In this document: one piece after another, positions 1-59,778 of the stretch
Numbering within the stretch: position 1 is the first letter of the stretch
How the letters are laid out: every line of letters begins with the position of its first letter
Assembly: GCA_002749205.1 (NCBI GenBank)
Contig: PDOP01000031.1
Coordinates: 35,603-99,602 of the forward strand
Direction: 5' to 3'
Length of the DNA stretch: 64,000 bases
Origin: Treponema sp.
Lineage (GTDB): Bacteria; Spirochaetota; Spirochaetia; Treponematales; Treponemataceae
Position numbers and translations under genes: made by a program
Notes under the pieces: generated by a model
Databases searched by the model: none
Told to the model about the DNA's origin: nothing
Seen by the model: the letters and a program-made list of their open reading frames with translations, nothing else

Positions 1-1
1 C

Positions 2-196
2 GCCGAATCAGGTGAAACACCTGCAGATGACGGCACAAACGCCGAATCGGGTGAAACACCCGCAGATAACGGAACAAACACCGAATCGGGTGAAACACCT
101 GCAGATGACGGTACAGACGCCGAATCGGGTGAAACACCCGCAGATGACGGTACTAACGCCGAATCGGGTGAAACACCCGCAGATAACGGTACTAAC
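2..196 (+). repeat. 39-bp coding tandem repeat, 5 full units in the window
   Basis: Unit GCCGAATCGGGTGAAACACCCGCAGATGACGGTACTAAC with few substitutions; units encode (A/T)ESGETPAD(D/N)GT(N/D). Confidence 0.95.
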
Positions 197-937
197 GCCG
201 AAGCGGGCGAAGATGCGGGAGGGACCGGTGGAACCGCCCCAAGCCCTGAAACAAGCGAAAACGCCGGAGAGACAAGCAACCCGCAAATGAGTACAGTTGG
301 AGAAAACTTCAGCCCTGAAGGAAGCTCTGCACTTCAAAAAACTGGAGCTGAGCCGATAGCAAAAGATACGGTACAACCAAGATATTTTAGTCAGCGGGAA
401 TTTAAGGACTTAAAAGATGAAAACGGGAACCCATTGTTTGAAAAAGACCTATTAAACTATACCTGTTATGCTACAGCACTTTTAAATGAAATTTCTGAAG
501 AATATACACTAGCAACAAAAAAAAAGCTGACACTTGAAGAAGCAGGAAAAGCATTAAGAAAAGCAATTGATCAAGGTGCAGTCATAGATTATGAACTTGA
601 TGAAAACGGTAAAATTGTAGATAATAGATTTGGCACTGTAACAGATACCTCTAAATTTCTAAACACTGTTTCTAATGAAATAGGGTTAAAAGGTACATGG
701 AGTATAGTAGATACTGTCAAAAAATATCAAAATGATGAAAGATATCACGCAATATTTTACAACGGTAGACATTTTATTAATAATACTAGATCAGCAGGTG
801 AAGTATATGAAGTGTGGCGAGGTAAAAAGGAGATATTAGATCCAAATGACCCAAAATATTGGGGTAAAACAGAAAATAATGTAGATCTGAAATTCAATGT
901 AATCGAAACACGAATATTAAGATTTGATGCAAATTAA
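2..937 (+). CDS. 5'-truncated protein: acidic 13-aa tandem repeats followed by a ~200-aa C-terminal domain with a Cys...His pair (possible papain-like/toxin-type domain)
   Basis: Frame starting at nt 2 is open (AESGETPADDGTN...SNPQ-MSTVGE) and in frame with ORF 287..937, so the gene begins upstream of the window. The C-terminal part has NYTCYATAL and GRHFIN. Function is inferred. Confidence 0.7.
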   Translation, partial: AESGETPADDGTNAESGETPADNGTNTESGETPADDGTDAESGETPADDGTNAESGETPADNGTNAEAGEDAGGTGGTAPSPETSENAGETSNPQMSTVGENFSPEGSSALQKTGAEPIAKDTVQPRYFSQREFKDLKDENGNPLFEKDLLNYTCYATALLNEISEEYTLATKKKLTLEEAGKALRKAIDQGAVIDYELDENGKIVDNRFGTVTDTSKFLNTVSNEIGLKGTWSIVDTVKKYQNDERYHAIFYNGRHFINNTRSAGEVYEVWRGKKEILDPNDPKYWGKTENNVDLKFNVIETRILRFDAN

Positions 938-4384: not shown

Positions 4385-4483
4385 AAATTTATTAATTCTC
4401 AGCTGTTTTCAAAAGCATTTTTTTTTCAAATACTTTTTGTTCTAGACCTTGCTAAATTCGAATTTTTGTTGTATAGTTTGTGT

Positions 4484-5893
4484 ATGAGTATTTCAATTTA
4501 TTCTCTCGGTGCAGCCGAGGAGGTTACCGGCTCGAAACATATTCTGGATGTTGACGGTCGAAAGTATTTGATTGATTGCGGTGCATTCCAAGGCTCAAGA
4601 GCCGAAGCAGATAAAAAAAATCGTGATTTTAATGTTCCCGCTAAAGATTTGGAAGCAGTAATTCTTACGCACGGGCATTACGACCACTGCGGTTTATTGC
4701 CTTTACTGAATATACACGGCTTTGAAGGAAATATTTACGCAACACCTGCAACAAGGGATTTAGCAAATCTGATTTTAATGGATTCAGCACATATTCAAGC
4801 CCGAGACCGTGAGTTCCATGCAAAGCAGGCGGCAAGAAAAGGCGAAAAGTTTACATGGAAGCCTCTTTTTGAAGAAGGTGATGTAATAAAAACAATCGGA
4901 CAATTTATTACTGTTTCGTACAGGCGCCCCATATATATAGGTCCGGGTGTTCAGTTGGAATTTTATGATGCGGGGCATATCCTGGGCTCTTCATTTGCAA
5001 TACTTACCGTAACGGAAAGCTCAGGTCGTGAAGTAAAAATAGCCTTTACAGGCGACCTTGGGCGGGAAGAAAAAGCGATTATCAGAAATCCTGAAGTCAT
5101 TCCTCCCGTAGATTACATCATTATGGAAAGCACCTATGGAAACAGACTTCATGAAAGTCAGGATAACGCATTAAAAATGCTTGAAGAAGCCGCCAATAAA
5201 ATTCACAAAACACACGGCAAGATTATAATTCCGGCTTTTGCTGTCGAAAGAACACAAGAGTTGGTTTACCACTTTCATTGTTTAATAGACGAAAAGAGAA
5301 TTCCTGAAATTCCGATTTATGTGGATTCACCGATGGCGGTAAATGCTACCAGTATTTTCCAAGTGCATCAAGAATGCTACGACAAAGAAACACATGAGGC
5401 TTTTATAAAACATCATAAAAATCCTTTCGGCTTTAACTCTTTGAAATTCATCACAAGTGTCGCAGAATCAAAAGAGCTAAACGATATTGACGGGCCAATG
5501 ATTATAATCAGTGCTGACGGTATGTGCGAATTCGGAAGAATTACACACCACTTGGCAAATAATATTGAAAAGCATTCAACAATTATTCTTTTGGTCGGCT
5601 TTATGGCGGCAAACACGCTAGGAAGAAGACTTCAAAACGGTGACGATAATGTTCGGATTTTTAACAAAAACTTTCATGTAAATGCAGAAGTTCTTCAAAT
5701 CAACGCATTCAGTGCCCATGCAGACTATCGTGAAATGCGGGACTGGTTGGACAAAAATGATACTTCAAAATTAAAGCGAATTTTCTTGGTACACGGCGAG
5801 CCTGATGCACAAAAACATCTTATCTCTTATCTTGGTGAAAAAAATTATAAAGATGTGCAAGTGATAAAATATGACGAAACATACGAGTTGTAA
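4484..5893 (+). CDS. MBL-fold beta-CASP ribonuclease family protein
   Basis: IDCG, THGHYDHCG, AGHILGS, FTGDLG, MESTYG, FSAHAD motifs. Confidence 0.9.
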   Translation: MSISIYSLGAAEEVTGSKHILDVDGRKYLIDCGAFQGSRAEADKKNRDFNVPAKDLEAVILTHGHYDHCGLLPLLNIHGFEGNIYATPATRDLANLILMDSAHIQARDREFHAKQAARKGEKFTWKPLFEEGDVIKTIGQFITVSYRRPIYIGPGVQLEFYDAGHILGSSFAILTVTESSGREVKIAFTGDLGREEKAIIRNPEVIPPVDYIIMESTYGNRLHESQDNALKMLEEAANKIHKTHGKIIIPAFAVERTQELVYHFHCLIDEKRIPEIPIYVDSPMAVNATSIFQVHQECYDKETHEAFIKHHKNPFGFNSLKFITSVAESKELNDIDGPMIIISADGMCEFGRITHHLANNIEKHSTIILLVGFMAANTLGRRLQNGDDNVRIFNKNFHVNAEVLQINAFSAHADYREMRDWLDKNDTSKLKRIFLVHGEPDAQKHLISYLGEKNYKDVQVIKYDETYEL

Positions 5894-7470: not shown

Positions 7471-7685
7471 AAATCACTCCCAATAAAATTCAAGCAAACA
7501 AATGCCCGTTACAGGATACAACCCTTTTAATAATTTTGTCAAGTAAAAAAATTTTTTTTAAAGGGGGAAGTATCCCCCTCGCTTGCAAAAAATTGCCTTT
7601 TTTCTTTTGTTAAATTATATCGAGTCTTCCTCAAGTCAGCCTCGATTACTTAAAAACATCAACAAGGCAATTGTTTTTCCGCTAC

Positions 7686-7757
7686 CCCCTCGACAGGCGG
7701 CACTGCATCTGGACAGGCTCGATAACCGCTTGTCGAAGCACGGGAACCATCCCTCGG
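7686..7757 (+). repeat. REP-like nested palindrome, family B (copy 2)
   Basis: CCCTCGACAGGCGGCACTGCATCTGGACAGGCTCGATAACCGCTTGTC matches 1715-1763. Confidence 0.8.
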
Positions 7758-7971
7758 CTTTTTTTCAACTTCCTGTCAGAGGGTAATAATCATCCATCCT
7801 GTATAATTATTACCCTGCCAAGTTTTGGCTTTTGCCAAAACTTGGTAAAATTAATTTTCACGAAACAAAAGTGTTTCGATTTGATATAATAGAAAAGTCT
7901 ACATCCTGTCCACACAAGAAGCTCAACATAAAACTTAAACGATACATAAGCGTGGAAGCATACGGTTAAGC

Positions 7972-8132
7972 AGAAAACCGGCAAGCCGGTCAATTAGTTT
8001 AACCTGATTTTAACCGGCGAAGTCTACACTTTTGCCCGATTAAACTTAAACAAAAACAACCTTCGCCGGCAGAAGAAGCGTTGTTGATTTTATCAGCAAA
8101 GGGCAAAAGGTTATGCGAGCCGGTGGGGTTGG
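7972..8132 (+). repeat. family A element, copy 2
   Basis: AGAAAACCGG..GTTTAACCTGATTT..ACCGGC-GAAGTCTACA-CTTTTGCCC...GGGCAAAAG-GTTATGCGA-GCCGGT-GGGGTTGG. Confidence 0.9.
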
Positions 8133-8246
8133 AGGCTGTGAAATGTTTTAAGATAAAAATTTTATTAAACCGTTTTTAAAACAACATTTCACAGCACCAT
8201 ATTATTTTATTTTGCTTTATTTTATTTTGCTTTACTTGATTTCATT

Positions 8247-9902: not shown

Positions 9903-9994
9903 AAACCGCTATATATCAAATTTAAGTAAAACTTTCAAGTGGTTTTAATCATAAAAATTGGCTTATTTTGAAAGAAGATGGCGATTTTGCTTTC

Positions 9995-10040
9995 AAGCAA
10001 AGGGCAAAAGATTTAAGGTGCGAGCGGGTTGGCGTTTAGC
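9995..10040 (+). repeat. family A element, copy 3 (3' half only)
   Basis: GGGCAAAAGATTTAAGGTGCGAGCGGGTTGGCGT; matches the 3' end of copy 4 (CAAAAG..GGCGT identical). Confidence 0.8.
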
Positions 10041-12287: not shown

Positions 12288-12612
12288 AGAATACCGGCGT
12301 GTAAAAGCCCGAGAAAAAATACTGAGCCGCTTGCAAAAGTCGGTTACTTTAGCAAGCACCTTAAAAAGAAGCTCATTTCATTGCACTTTTTGATATATTT
12401 TGGAAGAAATTGCAAAACTCGTCTGAGTTTTGCAATTTCCTATACTTTGTAATTTTTCTCGGGCTCGCATTTCGTTTAACCTTATTTTGCGAGTGCCGTT
12501 ATCCTTTTGTTTGATTGTTTATATAAGTAAAAGCGGTTCACAATTGTGAAACGCTGATTATTATTTTTCAGAAAAAAACAAAAGATTTAAGGTGCGAGCG
12601 GGTTGGCGTCAG
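12288..12612 (+). repeat. family A element, copy 4 (interrupted by a family C doublet)
   Basis: AGAATACCGG..[insert]..GTTTAACCTTATTTT..GTTATC-CTTTTGTTT...AAACAAAAG-ATTTAA..GGGTTGGCGTC. Confidence 0.85.
12324..12442. mobile_element. MITE/REPIN-like family C doublet (~120 bp)
   Basis: GAGCCGCTTGCAAAAGTC...TTTTGCAATTTCCT flanked by ATACT/ATACT; closely similar to 31231-31350. Confidence 0.7.
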
Positions 12613-12631
12613 CTAAAATTTTTTAAAAGTT

Positions 12632-15640: not shown

Positions 15641-15815
15641 ATCGTTTCCTTTAATTTTTTTTTATTTTAACATTTTATAAAGAAAACAACAAGGCTTATG
15701 AACCTGATTATTTATTTTTTATAAAAATGTTTAGTTTATTTATTTTTTTAATACTACATTTTTAAAACCATATTACATCTCACCCTGTACTGTAAAAAAT
15801 CAAAAACATTTTTCT

Positions 15816-15978
15816 CAACCCGCGACCACCGCATAACCTTTTGTTCTTTAATTTAATTTTTAATCAGTGTTTTACGCTATCGCTCCAACCACTTTTTCTT
15901 TTTAATTTAATCGAACAAAAGTGTAGACTGTGGTCGCCAAATCATATTAATCGTTCTGTATAATATGTTAGGTTTTCT
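15816..15978 (-). repeat. family A element, copy 5
   Basis: minus strand: AGAAAACC..TGATTTG-GCGACCAC-AGTCTACA-CTTTTGTTC...GAACAAAAG-GTTATGCG-GTGGTCGC-GGGTTG. Confidence 0.85.
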
Positions 15979-17075: not shown

Positions 17076-17114
17076 AAGAAATTGCAAAAGTCAAACGAGT
17101 TTTGCAAGTGGCTC
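17076..17114. repeat. family C ~40-bp palindrome between convergent genes
   Basis: AAGAAATTGCAAAAGTC..GAGTTTTGCAAGTGGCTC. Confidence 0.7.
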
Positions 17115-17120
17115 GCACTT

Positions 17121-21400: not shown

Positions 21401-21606
21401 AGAAAACCGGACTGTACTAGAGGCTATTGCAAAACTCGTATGACTTTTGCAATAGCCTCTACTACATAACACTTAACCTGATTTGGCGACCGCAGTCTAC
21501 ACTTTTGCTCGATTAAATTAAAAAGAAAAGTCGGTTGAAGCGACAGCGTAAAACGACGATTAAAAAATAAAGAAAAGAGCAAAAGGTTATGCAAGGGAGC
21601 GGGTTG
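21401..21606 (+). repeat. family A element, copy 6 (with a family C palindrome in the leader)
   Basis: AGAAAACCGG..ACTTAACCTGATTTGGCGACCGC-AGTCTACA-CTTTTGCTC...GAGCAAAAG-GTTATGCAA..GGGTTG. Confidence 0.88.
21420..21459. mobile_element. family C 40-bp palindrome with flanking direct repeat
   Basis: TACTA-GAGGCTATTGCAAAA..TTTTGCAATAGCCTC-TACTA. Confidence 0.7.
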
Positions 21607-21671
21607 AAAAATGTCTGCTCTGATTTTAGTTTTGAACTTAAATCAGAGCAGACATTAAAAATAAATTTAGT

Positions 21672-31087: not shown

Positions 31088-31404
31088 AGAAAACCCAAAA
31101 TACGACATGAGAAAAATAAAATTGTAATTTTTCTCATGGTCATATCGTTTAACATGATTTTGAAGACCGCCGTTATCCTTTTTGCCGATTAAAATAAAAA
31201 GAATAGACCTTCGCCGGCAGAAGAAGCGTCGAGCCGATTGCAAAAGTCGGTTACTTTAGCAAGTTGCTTAAAAATAAGCTCATTTCATTGCGCTTTTTGG
31301 TATATTTTAAGAAGAAATTACAAAACTCGTCCGGCTTTTGCAATTTCCTCCGTCTATTAAAAAAATCATTAAAGGCAAAAAGATTTAAGGCGGTCGAGGG
31401 TTGG
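31088..31404 (+). repeat. family A element, copy 7 (interrupted by a family C doublet)
   Basis: AGAAAACC..GTTTAACATGATTT..GACCGCC-GTTATC-CTTTTTGCC...GGCAAAAAG-ATTTAA-GGCGGTC-GAGGGTTGG. Confidence 0.85.
31231..31350. mobile_element. MITE/REPIN-like family C doublet (120 bp)
   Basis: terminal inverted repeats GAGCCGATTGCAAAAGTCGG / CCGGCTTTTGCAATTTCCTC, flanked by CGTC/CGTC. Confidence 0.75.
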
Positions 31405-31478
31405 AAGCTAAAAGTATTGGAGCGACTTTTTTTAACTAAATTAAATATTAAATCTCCAATACTTTTAAGCGACAATAT

Positions 31479-33747: not shown

Positions 33748-33875
33748 CCCTCGATGAAACTTTTTCATCGAGGGTCGGCGTATCTCGGGCTACGCTTTCG
33801 CTTCGACTAAAATCACGACATAAATTATTGTCGTGATTTTATTTTGTGCCGAAAATTAATATTTTCGGCACACCC
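33748..33875. repeat. cluster of three REP-like hairpins
   Basis: CCCTCGATGAAA/TTTCATCGAGGG; AAAATCACGACA/TGTCGTGATTTT; GTGCCGAAAAT/ATTTTCGGCAC. Confidence 0.75.
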
Positions 33876-33891
33876 CTCAATGTGCCTAACA

Positions 33892-34285
33892 CATGGGGTT
33901 TACGGAAACGTCCTGTTTCCGTAAACCCCGACGAGTTTTGGACTTTCGTCCAAAACATCGCTGTTTTTTTTTAACGCAACATCCGTGTTGCGTTTTTAGT
34001 TTCATGGGTTTCATGCAAACGTCCTGTTTCCGTAAACCCCGACGAGTTTTGGACTTCCGTCCAAAACATCGCTGTTTTTTTAACGCAACATCCGTGTTGC
34101 GTTTTTAGTTTCATGGGTTTCATGCAAACGTCCTGTTTCCGTAAATCCCGACGAGTTTTGGACTTTCGTCCAAAACATCGCTGTTTTTTTTAACGCAACA
34201 TCCGTGTTGCGTTTTTAGTTTCATGGGTTTCATGCAAACGTCCTGTTTCCGTAAACCCCGACGAGTTTTGGACTTTCGTCCAAAA
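33892..34285. repeat. tandem array of ~110-bp three-hairpin units (3.6 copies, no unique spacers)
   Basis: units start at 33892, 34003, 34112, 34222; lengths differ through a poly-T tract. Confidence 0.95.
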
Positions 34286-34349
34286 GATAACTATATTTAT
34301 ATTGACTTTTTTAAATATAAATGATATAACTTTCACAGAGAGGTAATAC

Positions 34350-38820: not shown

Positions 38821-38860
38821 CAGTCACTTGCAAAAGATGAGTTACTTTTGCAATTTTCTC
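38821..38860. repeat. family C ~40-bp palindrome
   Basis: CAGTCACTTGCAAAAG..CTTTTGCAATTTTCTC. Confidence 0.65.
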
Positions 38861-38946
38861 GAATATTATCTCTTAATATATTTTGACTTGATTAAAATCA
38901 AATTTAGTTGTATAATTAGGTTAAATTTAATATAACAGGTGATTTT

Positions 38947-43342: not shown

Positions 43343-43458
43343 AAGCGGCAGTCTAAACGGTTTAAGAAATTATGTCAAGCTGTCAAAATCAAATTTGTTT
43401 TAATTCTCATTTAGCTTAACCTGATTTCCCACGAATTAGCGATTGCATGATAAAAAAC

Positions 43459-43655
43459 AGAATACCGGCCTGAATGAGAAAAATCACAAAAGTGATTTTT
43501 CTCAAACAATTTGCTTAACCTGATTTGGAGCGGCGAAGTCTATACTTCCGACTTCAAATATAATAAAGAAATGGAAGCTGACGGTAGGAAGATTCCGTTC
43601 ATTTTTGAAAGTAGAAGTCGGAAGATTATGCAAGCCGCTCGGGTTGGCGTTAAGC
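43459..43655 (+). repeat. family A element, copy 8 (full length)
   Basis: AGAATACCGG-hairpin-GCTTAACCTGATTTG-GAGCGGC-GAAGTCTATA-CTTCCGACTTC...GAAGTCGGAAG-ATTATGCAA-GCCGCTC-GGGTTGGC-GTTAAGC. Confidence 0.9.
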
Positions 43656-43672
43656 AAATTTTTATAAATTTG

Positions 43673-45109
43673 TTAAAGTTTATCAATCAACATTGAGCAT
43701 TTACCGGAAGGAATAGGCAATGTTTTTCGTTTTTCTCCGATAATATCAATTGTAAAATAATACAGCTTTTCGCTTTCCATGTGGATTTCCCAACCTCGAT
43801 TTGATTTAGTCGAAAGAATAGTTATAAGATTGCGCTTCAGACTCAGATTTTCGATACCCATAACTTCCATACTCGGAATAGTCCAACCAACTGTTTTTCG
43901 AGGCAGGCTTATATTCAAGCCGATAACATTTTCTATCATCAAACTGATAGTCGAAAGAGCCAATGTTAAAATATAATTCTTTCTGGGGAACCATGTATGG
44001 CGTGGCCATTCTGCCTTACCCTCTTTCATGGGATTATATGCCTCCCATAACGCCCTTTCCGTTTTGTTGTATTCATCAACATCGGTCGGCGAAAGTGTCT
44101 CCAGAACATAATAAATATGCCTTATGGCGCATTCTCGTGCCAAAGACCACCTATTATATTTTTCCAAGCCTTTAATAACGATGTAATTCAAATCAGGGAA
44201 CACACTTCCGCAATATCCGCCACCTTTATCCGAAAACTCAGGCTCATTCGCCGCTAAACTCGGAAAAGGATGTTCGCCACCGAAAATTTCAGGGTCGGAC
44301 AAATATGAAGCCATCTGCGCCGCCTTATCCTCATTCGGTATTTCAGCCAACAAAGGCCAATAACTTGCAAGCGTTCTGACGGGAACATGCTGCTCTTTTA
44401 CATCAAGGTCATAATAAAAACCCGAATCAGAATCCCACATCTTATCGTTAATTCTGGTTTTAAGCGTAAAATAAAGTTTTTTATACTGAAAAGACACTTC
44501 CTTGTCATTCAAAATATCGCCGAGTGCCGATAAATACAAAGCATTAATCGCCATCGCCGAATTGAAATCAATCAAAAAAGCCGCAGATTTTCTCGGTGAA
44601 TTAACCATTCTCGTAACCGCCAAAGGTGTTTTGTACAAGCCGTTTTTTTCCTTAAACAACTCAGCAATCCACTCCATATACTTCAACAGCACGGGAAGCA
44701 CATCTTTAACCCGCTTTTTATTGCCTGTTTTGTGATAAATATTATATTCAGCCCATGCAAAAAGCGGAATACCAAGCCCCTCAGGATTAGCCTTTGTCAA
44801 AACAGGCTTACCCGTCTTAATATCATATTTTTTGCGAATAGCGCCTGTGGCTTCCTGCTTTGCGTAAAAATAATCCAAATTAGCTTCGGCACTGTAATTC
44901 CGGTTTGAATAAACCAAAAAAAATGTAGAAAAAATTGAAGGATACTGCTCAATAAAATCCCCGTCGTCTTCGCTGTAGACAAAATACTTTTCGTCCCCTT
45001 TTCCCGAGCCGGACATCCAATAATCATTCACCCTATCCCAAGTCTTATCATAAATATCCACAAAATCCTGATCATAAAAATGAATTCGCGGAAAATCTGT
45101 TCTATTCAC
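43673..45109 (-). CDS. MGH1/trehalase-like (alpha/alpha)6 glycoside hydrolase family protein
   Basis: PLFAWAEY, DFNSAMA, MWDSDSGFYYD, GYCGSVFP, LWEAYNP; family assignment from recognition only. Confidence 0.65.
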   Translation of the reverse strand: MNRTDFPRIHFYDQDFVDIYDKTWDRVNDYWMSGSGKGDEKYFVYSEDDGDFIEQYPSIFSTFFLVYSNRNYSAEANLDYFYAKQEATGAIRKKYDIKTGKPVLTKANPEGLGIPLFAWAEYNIYHKTGNKKRVKDVLPVLLKYMEWIAELFKEKNGLYKTPLAVTRMVNSPRKSAAFLIDFNSAMAINALYLSALGDILNDKEVSFQYKKLYFTLKTRINDKMWDSDSGFYYDLDVKEQHVPVRTLASYWPLLAEIPNEDKAAQMASYLSDPEIFGGEHPFPSLAANEPEFSDKGGGYCGSVFPDLNYIVIKGLEKYNRWSLARECAIRHIYYVLETLSPTDVDEYNKTERALWEAYNPMKEGKAEWPRHTWFPRKNYILTLALSTISLMIENVIGLNISLPRKTVGWTIPSMEVMGIENLSLKRNLITILSTKSNRGWEIHMESEKLYYFTIDIIGEKRKTLPIPSGKCSMLIDKL

Positions 45110-45209
45110 TACTACTCCTTAAAAAAAGCACCTAATAATTATAACATACTTTTTTAAAAAAATATACTAAAATTTCAAAAATAAACAAAATTTTTGTCGC
45201 TATTCGCTC

Positions 45210-45392
45210 CCAACCCTCGCCTACCTTGTATCTTTTGGGCTTTTCTTTTTTTTATAAAAGTCGTTTTCCCTCCGGTCAACCGACTTTTCCGACAAACTAA
45301 ATCGCCCAAAAGGATACCGGTAGTCTCAAAATCAGGCTAAGTGTATAAGAAAAATCAAAAATTGATTTTTCTCCAATACCCTCCGGTATTCT
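45210..45392 (-). repeat. family A element, copy 9 (variant subfamily)
   Basis: minus strand: AGAATACCGG..ACTTAGCCTGATTT..CTACC-GGTATC-CTTTTGGGC...GCCCAAAAG-ATACAA-GGTAG..GGGTTGG. Confidence 0.85.
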
Positions 45393-47543: not shown

Positions 47544-48332
47544 CTATAACGCTTCAATTTCTTTTTGAGATAGCCCTGTTGCCTGCTCAATTTTCGCAAT
47601 GTCCACACCCAATAATTTGAAATTTCTCGCAACTTCAATTTTACCTTCCTTGCGACCTTCCTGTATGCCTTTTTGCCTTCCCTCATACAAAACATCCATT
47701 TCAAAGCCGGACATAAGCCTGTATTCTTGGCGAGCGCCTTCATTTTCCTTTATTATTGTTATCATATTTGCTATCCTCCCTGTAAATTCGGTAGTTGCTT
47801 CTCCGGTTTTAATGTATTCCAAAAAACCTCTTAGCTCCTTATTTTCAGTTTGACTAAACGCTGCTGCATTTACTATAATCTTACTTAATCCGTCTTTAAG
47901 CTCTATCGTATTATCCTCGCTACAACGAGTCTTAAACGAATACACAGGCAAACCTGCCTTTAAATAATCAAATTTGCAGATAAAGATTATATATGAGTCA
48001 ACAAGTTCACTATAATGACAACCTTTATCCAAAGAGCTTAAATCAATTGCAGACTGGTAATACCTCATACGCTTGGCAAGATCATTTTTATCGGTTGTTT
48101 GCATCTCTATATCATAAACATTTCCGCTTTCATCTTTTGCCAATATATCAAGGCGAATACCTTTGGCATAACTTGCATGCTCTACGTGTCTTTGAAAATC
48201 AATTTCGGTTATTCTGTCAACTTTATCCGATAACAGTATATTTAAAAGTGTAAGGCAAATATCTTTATTCTGCATAACATGATAAAACATAAAATCATCA
48301 GTTATTGTCAAATCATCAAAACGCTTAAGCAT
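47544..48332 (-). CDS. Rpn family recombination-promoting nuclease / PD-(D/E)XK putative transposase
   Basis: TDDFMF, IRLDI, DIEMQ, KRMRYY, IIFIC, C-terminal EGRQKGIQEGRKEG..IEQATGLS. Confidence 0.88.
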   Translation of the reverse strand: MLKRFDDLTITDDFMFYHVMQNKDICLTLLNILLSDKVDRITEIDFQRHVEHASYAKGIRLDILAKDESGNVYDIEMQTTDKNDLAKRMRYYQSAIDLSSLDKGCHYSELVDSYIIFICKFDYLKAGLPVYSFKTRCSEDNTIELKDGLSKIIVNAAAFSQTENKELRGFLEYIKTGEATTEFTGRIANMITIIKENEGARQEYRLMSGFEMDVLYEGRQKGIQEGRKEGKIEVARNFKLLGVDIAKIEQATGLSQKEIEAL

Positions 48333-48438: not shown

Positions 48439-48632
48439 AGAATACCTGCAAGAATTGAGAACTTATCAGACTTTCTGTCTGATAAGTTCTCATCATTCAC
48501 TCAACCTGATGTGGCGACCGAAGTCTATCCTTTCGTCCGATTATTAAATCGGAAAAGTCGGCTTCTTTTGAAAGAAGACGACGATTTAATTAAACAGTAA
48601 AGGACGGAAGATTATGCGAGGGAGCGGGTTGG
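48439..48632 (+). repeat. family A element, copy 10
   Basis: AGAATACCTG-hairpin-ACTCAACCTGATGTG..GAAGTCTATC-CTTTCGTCC...GGACGGAAG-ATTATGCGA..GGGTTGG. Confidence 0.88.
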
Positions 48633-48674
48633 ATGCAAAAGCGAAGGCAAGCCTTTGGCTTACCAAGCGTTGCA

Positions 48675-52012: not shown

Positions 52013-52055
52013 AACCAAAACCAAAACAGATAAACCTTAAAAAAGTTAAATAAAT

Positions 52056-52257
52056 TTGCTTGACGCCAACCCGACGGGCTCGCATAACCTTTTGCTTTTT
52101 TCTTATATAAATTCAAACGGTGCTTTTCCTGCCGTCAAAGACCTTTACTGATATTTATAATCAAGCAAAAGTGTAGACTTCGCCCGTCTAAATCAGATTA
52201 AGCGAATTGTTTGAGAAAAATCACTTTTGTGATTTTTCTCATTCTCTCCGGTATTCT
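52056..52257 (-). repeat. family A element, copy 11
   Basis: minus strand: AGAATACCGG-hairpin-GCTTAATCTGATTTA-GACGGGC-GAAGTCTACA-CTTTTGCTT...AAGCAAAAG-GTTATGCGA-GCCCGTC-GGGTTGGCGTCAAGC. Confidence 0.9.
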
Positions 52258-59551: not shown

Positions 59552-59606
59552 TTTTTAAGTATACATTATTTTCAAAAAAATTAAAAGAGGTTCAAAGAGT
59601 ATATTT

Positions 59607-59778
59607 TTGCTGACGCCAACCCGACGGGCTCGCATAACCTTTTACTTTTTTCTTACATAAATTAAAACGGTGCTTTTCCTGCCGTCAAAGACCTTTACTG
59701 ATATTTATAATCAAGCAAAAGTGTAGACTTCGCCCGTCCAAATCACGATAACCGTACTGCATAAAACGCCGGTTTCTC
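59607..59778 (-). repeat. family A element, copy 12 (near-identical to copy 11)
   Basis: about 130 bp match to 52059-52190 with only a few substitutions. Confidence 0.9.

Follow-up and report, generated by a model that had tools for sequence, protein, structure and literature searches.

The intergenic regions of the chromosomal stretch analysed here (64,000 nucleotides of Treponema sp. contig PDOP01000031.1, hereafter the window) carry a repeat that had not been catalogued before and that is very abundant in an uncultured Treponema-like spirochaete. We call this repeat family A and use its copy 8, at positions 43513-43655 of the window, as the reference. According to our preferred reading, to which we assign a probability of about one half, family A is a recently amplified dispersed element resembling either the repetitive extragenic palindromes (REP) and their mosaics (BIME) or MITEs (miniature transposable elements with inverted repeats), and its selected unit is the fold of the strand that reads AACCTG..GGGTTGG, most probably acting as RNA. 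Its long irregular hairpin is preserved by evolution on one strand.

Dispersed structured repeats (REP, ERIC, Correia, TD-1/TD-2) are common, and whether they act as DNA, as single-stranded DNA (ssDNA) or as RNA is mostly undecided. Family A is an unusually clean handle on this question: it offers many diverged copies, helices that are hypervariable and still complementary, a conserved non-Watson-Crick joint and a measurable strand asymmetry that is threefold larger with RNA than with DNA energetics.

The hairpin of family A and its covariation

Twelve copies of family A and one fragment lie in the 64 kb of the window and 16 further copies in 80 kb of metagenome contigs (loci denoted below by L and a number), a density of about one copy per 5 kb in both. 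The copies were counted with a covariance model that was built from ten window copies and then run on the window and the metagenome loci; its matches score 58-157 bits, with the truncated copy 3 and the 5' part of the interrupted copy 7 below this range. Repeat finding and pattern search both lead back to this scaffold, at some dozen intergenic sites, and the pattern GTCTAYMC-N65-95-AAGRTTATGC has 8 matches in the window against 0.00 expected. All copies are intergenic, and the unit is about 140 nt long, or about 190 nt with a conserved 5' leader. The genomes behind the 28 aligned sequences may be just one or a few related ones. The copies of the window are the following.

Copy 1: 1834-1987, + strand, 136.8 bits
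Copy 2: 7995-8145, + strand, 140.7 bits
Copy 3: 9944-10040 (model match begins 9898), + strand, 5'-truncated, second subfamily, 28.6 bits
Copy 4: 12472-12619, + strand, second subfamily, 113.9 bits
Copy 5: 15802-15954, - strand, 123.4 bits
Copy 6: 21469-21620, + strand, 139.5 bits
Copy 7: 31145-31410, + strand, second subfamily, split by an insert of about 120 nt made of other repeat modules; its 5' part scores 40.4 bits
Copy 8: 43513-43655, + strand, complete long hairpin with outer stem, 134.8 bits (model match begins 43511)
Copy 9: 45197-45344, - strand, second subfamily, 103.9 bits
Copy 10: 48497-48645, + strand, 121.9 bits
Copy 11: 52053-52205, - strand, 157 bits
Copy 12: 59603-59755, - strand, 144 bits
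Orphan fragment from the 5' part of a copy, GCTTAACCTGATTT: 43414-43427, + strand, an exact 14-nt match after which the sequence is not family A

Only the 3' half of copy 3 aligns with copies 4 and 10 (repeat families D3 and D12), and the modules inserted in copy 7 are D13 and D6/D7, at 31231-31366.

The interval 43513-43655 brackets copy 8 exactly, including its outer GCTTAAC/GTTAAGC stem, and its 143 bases read GCTTAACCTGATTTGGAGCGGCGAAGTCTATACTTCCGACTTC ... GAAGTCGGAAGATTATGCAAGCCGCTCGGGTTGGCGTTAAGC. From the outside in, each copy of the family folds into stem P1 (AACCU/GGGUU), a conserved 5' bulge of 6-7 nt, a hypervariable stem P2, a conserved joint, stem P3, an A/U-rich internal loop, stem P4 and a modular apical hairpin. 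The joint is composed of tandem G-A pairs, a U-G wobble, a C/U mismatch, two bulges and a covarying pyrimidine-purine (Y-R) pair. In copy 8 these parts are located as follows, all on the + strand; A3 is the model-based alignment.

43445-43512: conserved 5' leader with the TGATAAAAA box, the AGAATACCGGC motif and the hairpin GAGAAAAATCAC/GTGATTTTTCTC, common to copy 11 (inverted repeat I2)
43513-43519: 5' strand of P0, GCTTAAC, partner GTTAAGC at 43649-43655; an outer stem present in some copies only, from the sequence and the minimum free energy (MFE) fold
43517-43521: 5' strand of P1, AACCT, partner GGGTT at 43641-43645, with a T-G wobble; A3 columns 7-11/149-153 are 86.8% paired
43522-43527: conserved 5' bulge GATTTG between P1 and P2, with no partner on the 3' side; TGAT-TT is near-invariant in alignments A1 and A3
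43528-43534: 5' strand of P2, GAGCGGC, partner GCCGCTC at 43634-43640; hypervariable and covarying, 5 of 7 pairs change on both sides
43535-43544: joint, 5' side GAAGTCTATA, conserved and of non-Watson-Crick type, with T43543 as the covarying Y and A43544 as the bulged base
43545-43555: 5' strand of P3, CTTCCGACTTC, partner GAAGTCGGAAG at 43614-43624; 6 of 9 P3 pairs change on both sides
43573-43596: apical module GCTGACGGTAGGAAGA, closed by P4 (GGAA/TTCC); 4 of 4 P4 pairs change on both sides, and the module is common to a sister family at 7579-7694
43625-43633: joint, 3' side ATTATGCAA, from alignment A3; A43625 is the covarying R

The fold was tested as a hand-drawn set of 30 pairs (P1, P2, five joint pairs, P3 and P4) on A3. 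Standard pairs fill 89.0% of the cells, compared with 75.7% in shuffled alignments and 34-47% when the 3' partner is slid by 1-3 columns. Both partners vary in 17 of the 30 pairs (119 cells), and none of 500 shuffles attains any of these values. Because A3 was fitted to a model built on the tested structure, these counts lean towards that structure, a bias that the slide controls and an independent self-alignment mitigate. P3 and the joint helix together (14 pairs) are 96.6% paired, and P3 and P4 are nearly always Watson-Crick while alternating among C-G, U-A, A-U and G-C. P2 takes such forms as GACAGGC/GCCTGTC, AACCGGC/GCCGGT, GACGGGC/GCCCGTC and GCGACCAC/GTGGTCGC; some of the mispairs that it seems to have stem from a shift by one alignment column in the GCGACC/GGGAGC copies. 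Variation in P1 is one-sided and mostly preserves wobble pairing on the AACCTG..GGGTTGG strand (columns 8/152: A-U 13, G-U 10, A-C 0). Other parts are conserved in sequence rather than in pairing: GAUUU in the 5' bulge, GAAGUCUAYAC / GRUUAUGCGA in the joint, and the sequence on either side of the apical hairpin. Family A thus combines helices that carry compensatory substitutions with sequence-conserved loops, the generic signature of structured RNA.

A preliminary description of this locus, made from the letters alone, had singled out a covarying pair beside a single bulged base, and the pair is indeed there. Copies 1, 2, 5, 6, 11 and 12 combine TCTAC-A with GGTTATG, while copy 8 (TCTAT-A) and copy 10 (TCTAT-C) both have GATTATG; copies 4 and 9 are also T-A at this position. 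Over the 28 sequences of the window and the metagenome loci (A3 columns 36/131) the pair is C-G in 15, T-A in 13 and unpaired in 0. On crude clustering trees the switches between C-G and T-A amount to 2-3 events rather than 13 independent ones, and no intermediate survives. The irregular pairs listed in the same description could all be located: one T-G in copy 10 (CTTTCGTCC/GGACGGAAG), one G-T in copy 12 (CTTTTGCTT/AAGTAAAAG), two such pairs in copy 4 (GTGCC/GGTGC), and tandem G-A/A-G within P2 of copies 4, 6 and 10 (GCGACC/GGGAGC or GCGAG/GCGAGC). So could its second subfamily, copies 3, 4, 7 and 9, with 5' CCG(T/G)TATCC and 3' GAT(T/A)(T/C)AAGG; the same combination (CCGKTATCC / GATWYAAGG) occurs at L120:4534 and L118:8469. 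The G-T pairs, the tandem G-A and the second subfamily are each seen again among the metagenome copies.

Tandem G-A in P2 is found in five metagenome copies as well, and copy 5 has the Watson-Crick version, GCGACC/GGTCGC. The G-A/A-G adjoining P2 is U-A/U-A in L114 and G-C/C-G in L120:6213, and in copy 5 it is absorbed into a Watson-Crick helix of 8 bp. Since the G-A/A-G beside P2 is swapped for Watson-Crick pairs, these positions must face each other in a continuous helix. A kink-turn at the tandem G-A sites was rejected, the required 3-nt bulge directly beside the G-A being absent on both strands. An alternative outer helix, CUGAUUUG/CGGGUUGG, with five G-U pairs, is part of the MFE fold of copy 8; by our reading of A3 its variants are compensated in 3 cases and broken in 6, and P1 with a one-sided bulge is preferred.

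These data bear on the view that family A matters as double-stranded DNA, either as a MITE with long terminal inverted repeats or as a palindromic protein site, with arms that match because each has to bind the same protein and a strand asymmetry that is an accident of the founder copy. Such an element would be palindromic, intergenic and present in both orientations, as family A is, and the few events behind the Y-R covariation agree with it, as does an excess of G-T pairs that sits mostly at conserved positions. On the other hand, one protein binding both arms does not predict P2, P3 and P4 stems that are hypervariable yet complementary in each copy, with 17 pairs changed on both sides and a signal that collapses in the slide controls. 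The one-sided changes in P1 keep the wobble on one strand, the swaps between G-A/A-G and Watson-Crick pairs make sense only in a folded strand, and the arms differ systematically by bulges and by the one-sided loop of 6-7 nt. We consider the double-stranded alternative quite improbable.

Dispersal of the copies and related repeats

Family A copies are found in all possible orientations relative to the genes that flank them on either side: opposite/opposite in 8 cases, same/same in 7, opposite/same in 6 and same/opposite in 5. With the four configurations about equally frequent, family A is ruled out as a dedicated element of 5' leaders or of the 3' untranslated region (UTR); the mixture fits a mobile repeat or else a gene that is transcribed on its own. 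In the window, 8 copies are on the + strand and 4 on the - strand, spaced 2-17 kb apart, and their neighbours include housekeeping genes (EF-G, MurD-like, PriA, ParA/ParB, flagellar rod). At three metagenome loci the copies form head-to-head (divergent) pairs, 17-97 nt apart (L115 1-287; L121 6249-6615; L123 4409-4759).

Copies of the C-G subfamily differ from their nearest neighbours by only 4-7% at unrelated loci, also between the window and the metagenome assembly PDWI01. T-A copies are 23-36% from their nearest relative, save for one near-identical pair at 2%. Judged from these distances, the C-G subfamily is young and the T-A set older, the pattern of bursts from master copies.

The 3' edge of the element is sharp, right after GGGTTG(G/C), whereas the 5' boundary lies within a leader of variable length. 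Three paralogous genes that, from their sequence, look like chemoreceptor genes of the methyl-accepting chemotaxis protein (MCP) type (L116 3800-6400, - strand; L118 970-3520; L120 7540-10040) have a family A copy 57-101 nt past the stop codon. Beside these paralogues the element is 91-94% identical, whereas the 3' part of the gene is 41-82% identical per alignment window of 150 columns, and similarity stops exactly after GGGTTGC. One 97-kb contig contains both L118 and L120. Downstream, many copies directly adjoin hairpins that differ from copy to copy and are probably the terminators of the neighbouring genes; an intrinsic terminator of its own was rejected as a general feature of family A (same strand 9/28, opposite strand 8/28).

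The leader contains the motif AGAAWACCGGC, with 15 matches in the window against 1.5 expected, mostly just upstream of copies and 22-25 nt ahead of the start of the model match (e.g., 7972-7982, 12288-12298, 21401-21411, 43459-43469, 45382-45392 on the - strand, 48439-48449 and 52247-52257 on the - strand). Long copies have a hairpin, GAGAAAAATCAC/GTGATTTTTCTC or another, between this motif and the element. Ahead of the motif, about 15 of 27 copies, counted by eye, have TG-N-(A/T-rich hexamer)-NN, which looks like an extended -10 promoter that would start transcription within the motif. Readings of the leader motif as a sigma-54, extracytoplasmic function (ECF) or -35/-10 promoter were rejected on account of inconsistent spacings, and the extended -10-like TG-N-hexamer survives only as a lead. 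A copy-specific, guide-like match between leader and P2, present in copies 1 and 2 and absent in others, was judged coincidental.

The distribution of family A is restricted. A tighter pattern run on metagenome contigs retrieves ten real loci, nearly all in PDWI01, which have nothing but repeats in common with the window; run on viral contigs, it has no match. The GTCTAYMC-N65-95-AAGRTTATGC pattern has at least 111 matches over 596 Gb of genome contigs, and those listed are essentially all from unrelated phyla and were judged to be chance. A locus from a metagenome-assembled genome of Spirochaetales that came up among the loose-pattern matches (L028) is without a covariance-model match. With the covariance model, no copy turns up in the 187 kb that surround P83/100 in T. 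denticola plus three other relatives, or in the 69 kb that surround EF-G in three further lineages (256 kb and seven Treponema lineages in all). A 25-nt exact match to the joint/P3 segment, AGTCTACACTTTTGCCCGATTAGG, stands at L113 17-41, on a contig of 29% GC from another metagenome, where the rest of the element is absent; it is probably a chance match, about one being expected, and could be a fragment.

Family A behaves as a dispersed element in several respects: both orientations, all four gene configurations, truncated and interrupted copies, a young subfamily and a restricted distribution. In function and structure it is closest to the ERIC/Correia/RUP hairpin repeats and to the REP/BIME mosaics. 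With REP, BIME and REPIN elements of enterobacteria and Pseudomonas it shares high copy number, intergenic location, hairpins, either orientation, mosaic clusters, compensatory change and lineage specificity. It differs from them in being a single hairpin of about 140 nt rather than a palindrome of 20-40 nt or a doublet thereof, in its conserved non-Watson-Crick internal loops and strong strand asymmetry, and in having no conserved 5' tetranucleotide of the GTAG type. By inspection of A3, its arms are without a general internal palindrome of the REP/REPIN kind, and the window open reading frames (ORFs) scanned against Pfam include no Y1 transposase or RAYT.

The MITE-like repeats of 100-160 nt, ERIC (IRU), Correia (NEMIS), RUP and BOX, resemble family A in size, in their long imperfect hairpin, in their UTR, intergenic and operon sites, in having subfamilies and in their truncated or interrupted copies. 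In contrast to them, family A has no definable terminal repeats of the insertion sequence (IS) type or target-site duplication; there is no sequence similarity, and the helices covary far more than would be expected of decaying MITE copies. Several repeats of the ERIC/Correia/RUP/BOX type act in RNA, as targets of RNase III or RNase E or as stabilisers of mRNA.

The TD-1 and TD-2 RNA motifs of Treponema denticola are multi-copy and have covarying modular stems (Rfam RF03155 and RF03162, clan CL00124; Weinberg et al. 2007, PMC1950547). Family A is like them in genus, copy number and covarying modular stems, and TD-2 shares its window and its mosaic intergenic regions. However, TD-2 consists of three hairpins and family A is one long rod. 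Family A matches no Rfam 15 family at gathering score: a scan of the whole window retrieves TD-2 only, and the best match on the copy 8 locus has an E value of about 1. TD-1 and TD-2 themselves have no match on 43380-43700 at E up to 10, the TD-2 matches being elsewhere (7778-7878, 33891-34211).

An imperfect hairpin with bulged bases that is read on one strand is also found in integron attC sites, and copy 8 starts with GCTTAAC and ends with GTTAAGC, in agreement with the RYYYAAC and GTTRRRY consensus ends. It could accordingly be an attC site, or the family an array akin to a cluster of attC sites lacking integron integrases (CALIN). Both ends occur together in just 1 of 26 copies, copy 8 itself (RYYYAAC 9/26, GTTRRRY 1/26). 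Moreover, orientation is mixed, the copies lie 2-17 kb apart among housekeeping genes without cassettes, and no tyrosine recombinase gene is found among the Pfam-scanned ORFs of the window. This explanation is effectively refuted.

Strand asymmetry and the form in which the fold acts

The preliminary description held that the AACCTG..GGGTTGG strand is the folded one and that it is a structured RNA. The first part stands, this strand folding at lower energy in every one of the 26 distinct full copies, with RNA and DNA parameters alike; the second is plausible only. The mean energy gap between the strands over the 26 copies is -10.1 kcal/mol with RNA parameters and -3.1 kcal/mol with DNA parameters. 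In copy 8, the + strand folds as RNA into one long hairpin with an MFE of -56.6 kcal/mol (z -6.3), compared with -42.8 kcal/mol (z -5.6) for the - strand; with DNA parameters the strands are much closer (-24.7 and -21.8, respectively). The 26 copies do not represent 26 independent events because much of the asymmetry sits at conserved positions that come from a common ancestor.

In the well-aligned helices (P1, joint, P3 and P4), there are 65 cells with G-T and 3 with A-C, or 10 and 3 when counted by distinct column and type. A strand-symmetric test aligns each copy with its own reverse complement, scores transitions neutrally and counts only mismatches stacked between Watson-Crick pairs. It gives 35 cells with G-T and 18 with A-C, in 24 and 11 distinct column pairs, or 23 and 10 among rare ones. 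The preliminary description had named an equal frequency of the two mispairs as the outcome that would speak against its folded strand, and in both counts (65 vs 3; 35 vs 18) they are unequal.

From this asymmetry a structured RNA is plausible, and our analysis favours RNA over ssDNA because the asymmetry is energetically meaningful mainly in RNA, the AACCTG..GGGTTGG strand is G-rich (G 908, C 579), there are GNNA/GNRA loops, and the leader has a promoter-like box. Several apical loops are of the GNNA or GNRA type and are closed by short G-C stems. According to the reading that we prefer, family A would have been amplified in this Treponema lineage by some mobility mechanism, and selection would act on the fold of the AACCTG..GGGTTGG strand rather than on a site in double-stranded DNA. 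The folded strand would be made as RNA, from the extended -10-like leader box or by read-through from neighbouring genes, and its hairpin may serve as a stable module that is recognised by a protein or a nuclease.

Its main rival is recognition of the fold as ssDNA only. Family A would then be a non-autonomous mobile hairpin, comparable to a REPIN or to an element derived from IS200/IS605, with one strand recognised and cut by an enzyme of the HUH/Y1 type or another structure-specific enzyme encoded elsewhere. Insertion independent of orientation and a burst-like young subfamily are what such an element would show; compensatory change keeps its structure, sequence is conserved near its ends, and DNA parameters favour the same strand in 26 of 26 copies. 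The ssDNA substrates of IS608 TnpA, of RAYTs and of attC recombination have bulged bases and G-T or G-A pairs, and these are present in family A. Nevertheless, the asymmetry is 3.1 kcal/mol as DNA compared with 10.1 as RNA, no Y1/HUH transposase is found among the scanned window ORFs, and family A is one hairpin of 140 nt, not two short subterminal hairpins. Nor is the folded strand preferentially the template of the lagging strand (8 of 12 copies are on the + strand, which has a negative GC skew). We regard the ssDNA reading as a doubtful but serious possibility. If it were true, it would point to an unrecognised structure-specific mobilisation enzyme in Treponema.

An active RNA could also be the product of a gene. 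Family A would in that case be a self-propagating structured-RNA gene, a bacterial counterpart of short interspersed nuclear elements (SINEs), with its own extended -10 promoter in the leader, and its RNA would have its specific partner in a protein still to be recognised. The apical module GCUGACGNNAGGAAGA, with tandem G-A, a C-G pair and a GNNA loop, is also present in a second repeat family, which suggests a shared binding site. We consider a SINE-like gene unlikely. Were it real, the several hundred copies per genome expected by extrapolation would make it a major cellular RNA, or the guide or scaffold of a new mobile system.

A number of observations weigh against our preferred reading, some against the RNA and some against the mobility. 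At variable positions the excess of G-T in the strand-symmetric test is only about 2:1, with p of roughly 0.04, and most of the excess is at conserved positions, where it could be inherited from one ancestor. The same strand is favoured in all 26 copies with DNA parameters too, and folded ssDNA also tolerates G-T and tandem G-A pairs. The copies occur in either orientation relative to neighbouring genes, the promoter-like leader box is without a -35 element and may be mere repeat sequence, and terminator-like sites (dG of -6 or lower followed by a T-run) are downstream of 9 of 28 copies on the same strand and of 8 of 28 on the opposite one. As to mobility, which is read from the distribution of the copies only, no flanking direct repeat or target-site duplication is evident around copies whose 5' boundary is variable. 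IS-type terminal inverted repeats and a cognate transposase were not identified, a PDDEXK_2 gene being the sole transposase-like gene of the window. If the fold does act as RNA, family A would be a large new family of spirochaete RNAs. With roughly one copy in every 5 kb, a good share of the transcripts would contain it, and a dedicated protein that binds or processes it would be indicated.

The host and its other repeats

The genes of the window, as judged by a Pfam scan of its ORFs, are those of a spirochaete core chromosome: flagellar rod protein, EF-G, MurD-like ligases, P83/100, PriA, ParA/ParB, RpoA, ribosomal proteins and SecY. In a database of 5.8 billion protein sequences, the closest relatives of its EF-G, from T. 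pedis and T. denticola, are at most 74% identical, and the closest relative of P83/100 is at most 60% identical. Identities as low as these to the nearest relatives place the host in a deep-branching, uncultured Treponema-like lineage. The single other contig that was found with a gene of the window is identical in sequence to it and ends in the hairpin just upstream of copy 8 and within copy 9, so that family A copies explain these breaks in assembly.

The intergenic regions are mosaics in which copies of TD-2, hairpins of the form TTGCAAAAC...GTTTTGCAA, a module of 78 nt and the sister family also occur. This sister family has a scaffold different from that of family A, GGGGGTAGCGGAAAAACAATTGCCTTG...AAGGCAATTTTTTGCAAGCGA, and was found in the window at 7579-7694 (- strand) and at L117 4397-4511, L119 6936-7049 and L120 905-1040. 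It has the apical module of copy 8, GCTGACGTGAGGAAGA, closed by a covarying stem, and adjoins a family A copy at three different loci; the form of the module common to both families is GCTGACGNNAGGAAGA.

The hairpin repeat TTGCAAAAC-loop-GTTTTGCAA is similar to the middle hairpin of TD-2 and is located at 12410-12447, 17082-17119, 21427-21464, 31318-31355 and 38828-38865. Together with the 78-nt module (12324-12401 and 31231-31308) it is inserted in the middle of copy 7, and the same pair is inserted upstream of copy 4, where it occupies the leader hairpin's loop. Their presence at these two sites suggests that the 78-nt module and the hairpin may insert into hairpin loops. Another inverted repeat, ..TGTGAAATGTT ... 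AACATTTCACA.., with arms of 13-15 bp and a loop of 35-40 nt, is directly 3' of several family A copies at unrelated loci (window 8135-8200, L115 downstream of the copy at 136-287, and L123 downstream of the copy at 4409-4560).

TD-2 (RF03162) is described as specific to T. denticola, and it is found in the window at 33854-34301 and at 7778-7878 (- strand), in a host that shares only about 74% EF-G identity with T. denticola. At 33854-34301 it forms a tandem array of four 110-nt units, of which one is above the gathering score and two are below it. TD-1 has sub-threshold matches on the strand opposite to this array.

The transposase-like gene of the window, at 47544-48332 on the - strand, belongs to the PD-(D/E)XK nuclease family transposases (PDDEXK_2, Rpn-like) and adjoins copy 10. 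A gene of the PDDEXK_2 family also flanks the P83/100 locus of T. denticola (L124), where family A was not found. At the very beginning of the window (1-250), five tandem repeats of 39 nt, 70-91% identical to a reference copy, lie inside an ORF that runs off the window edge and appear to encode a peptide repeat of 13 residues.

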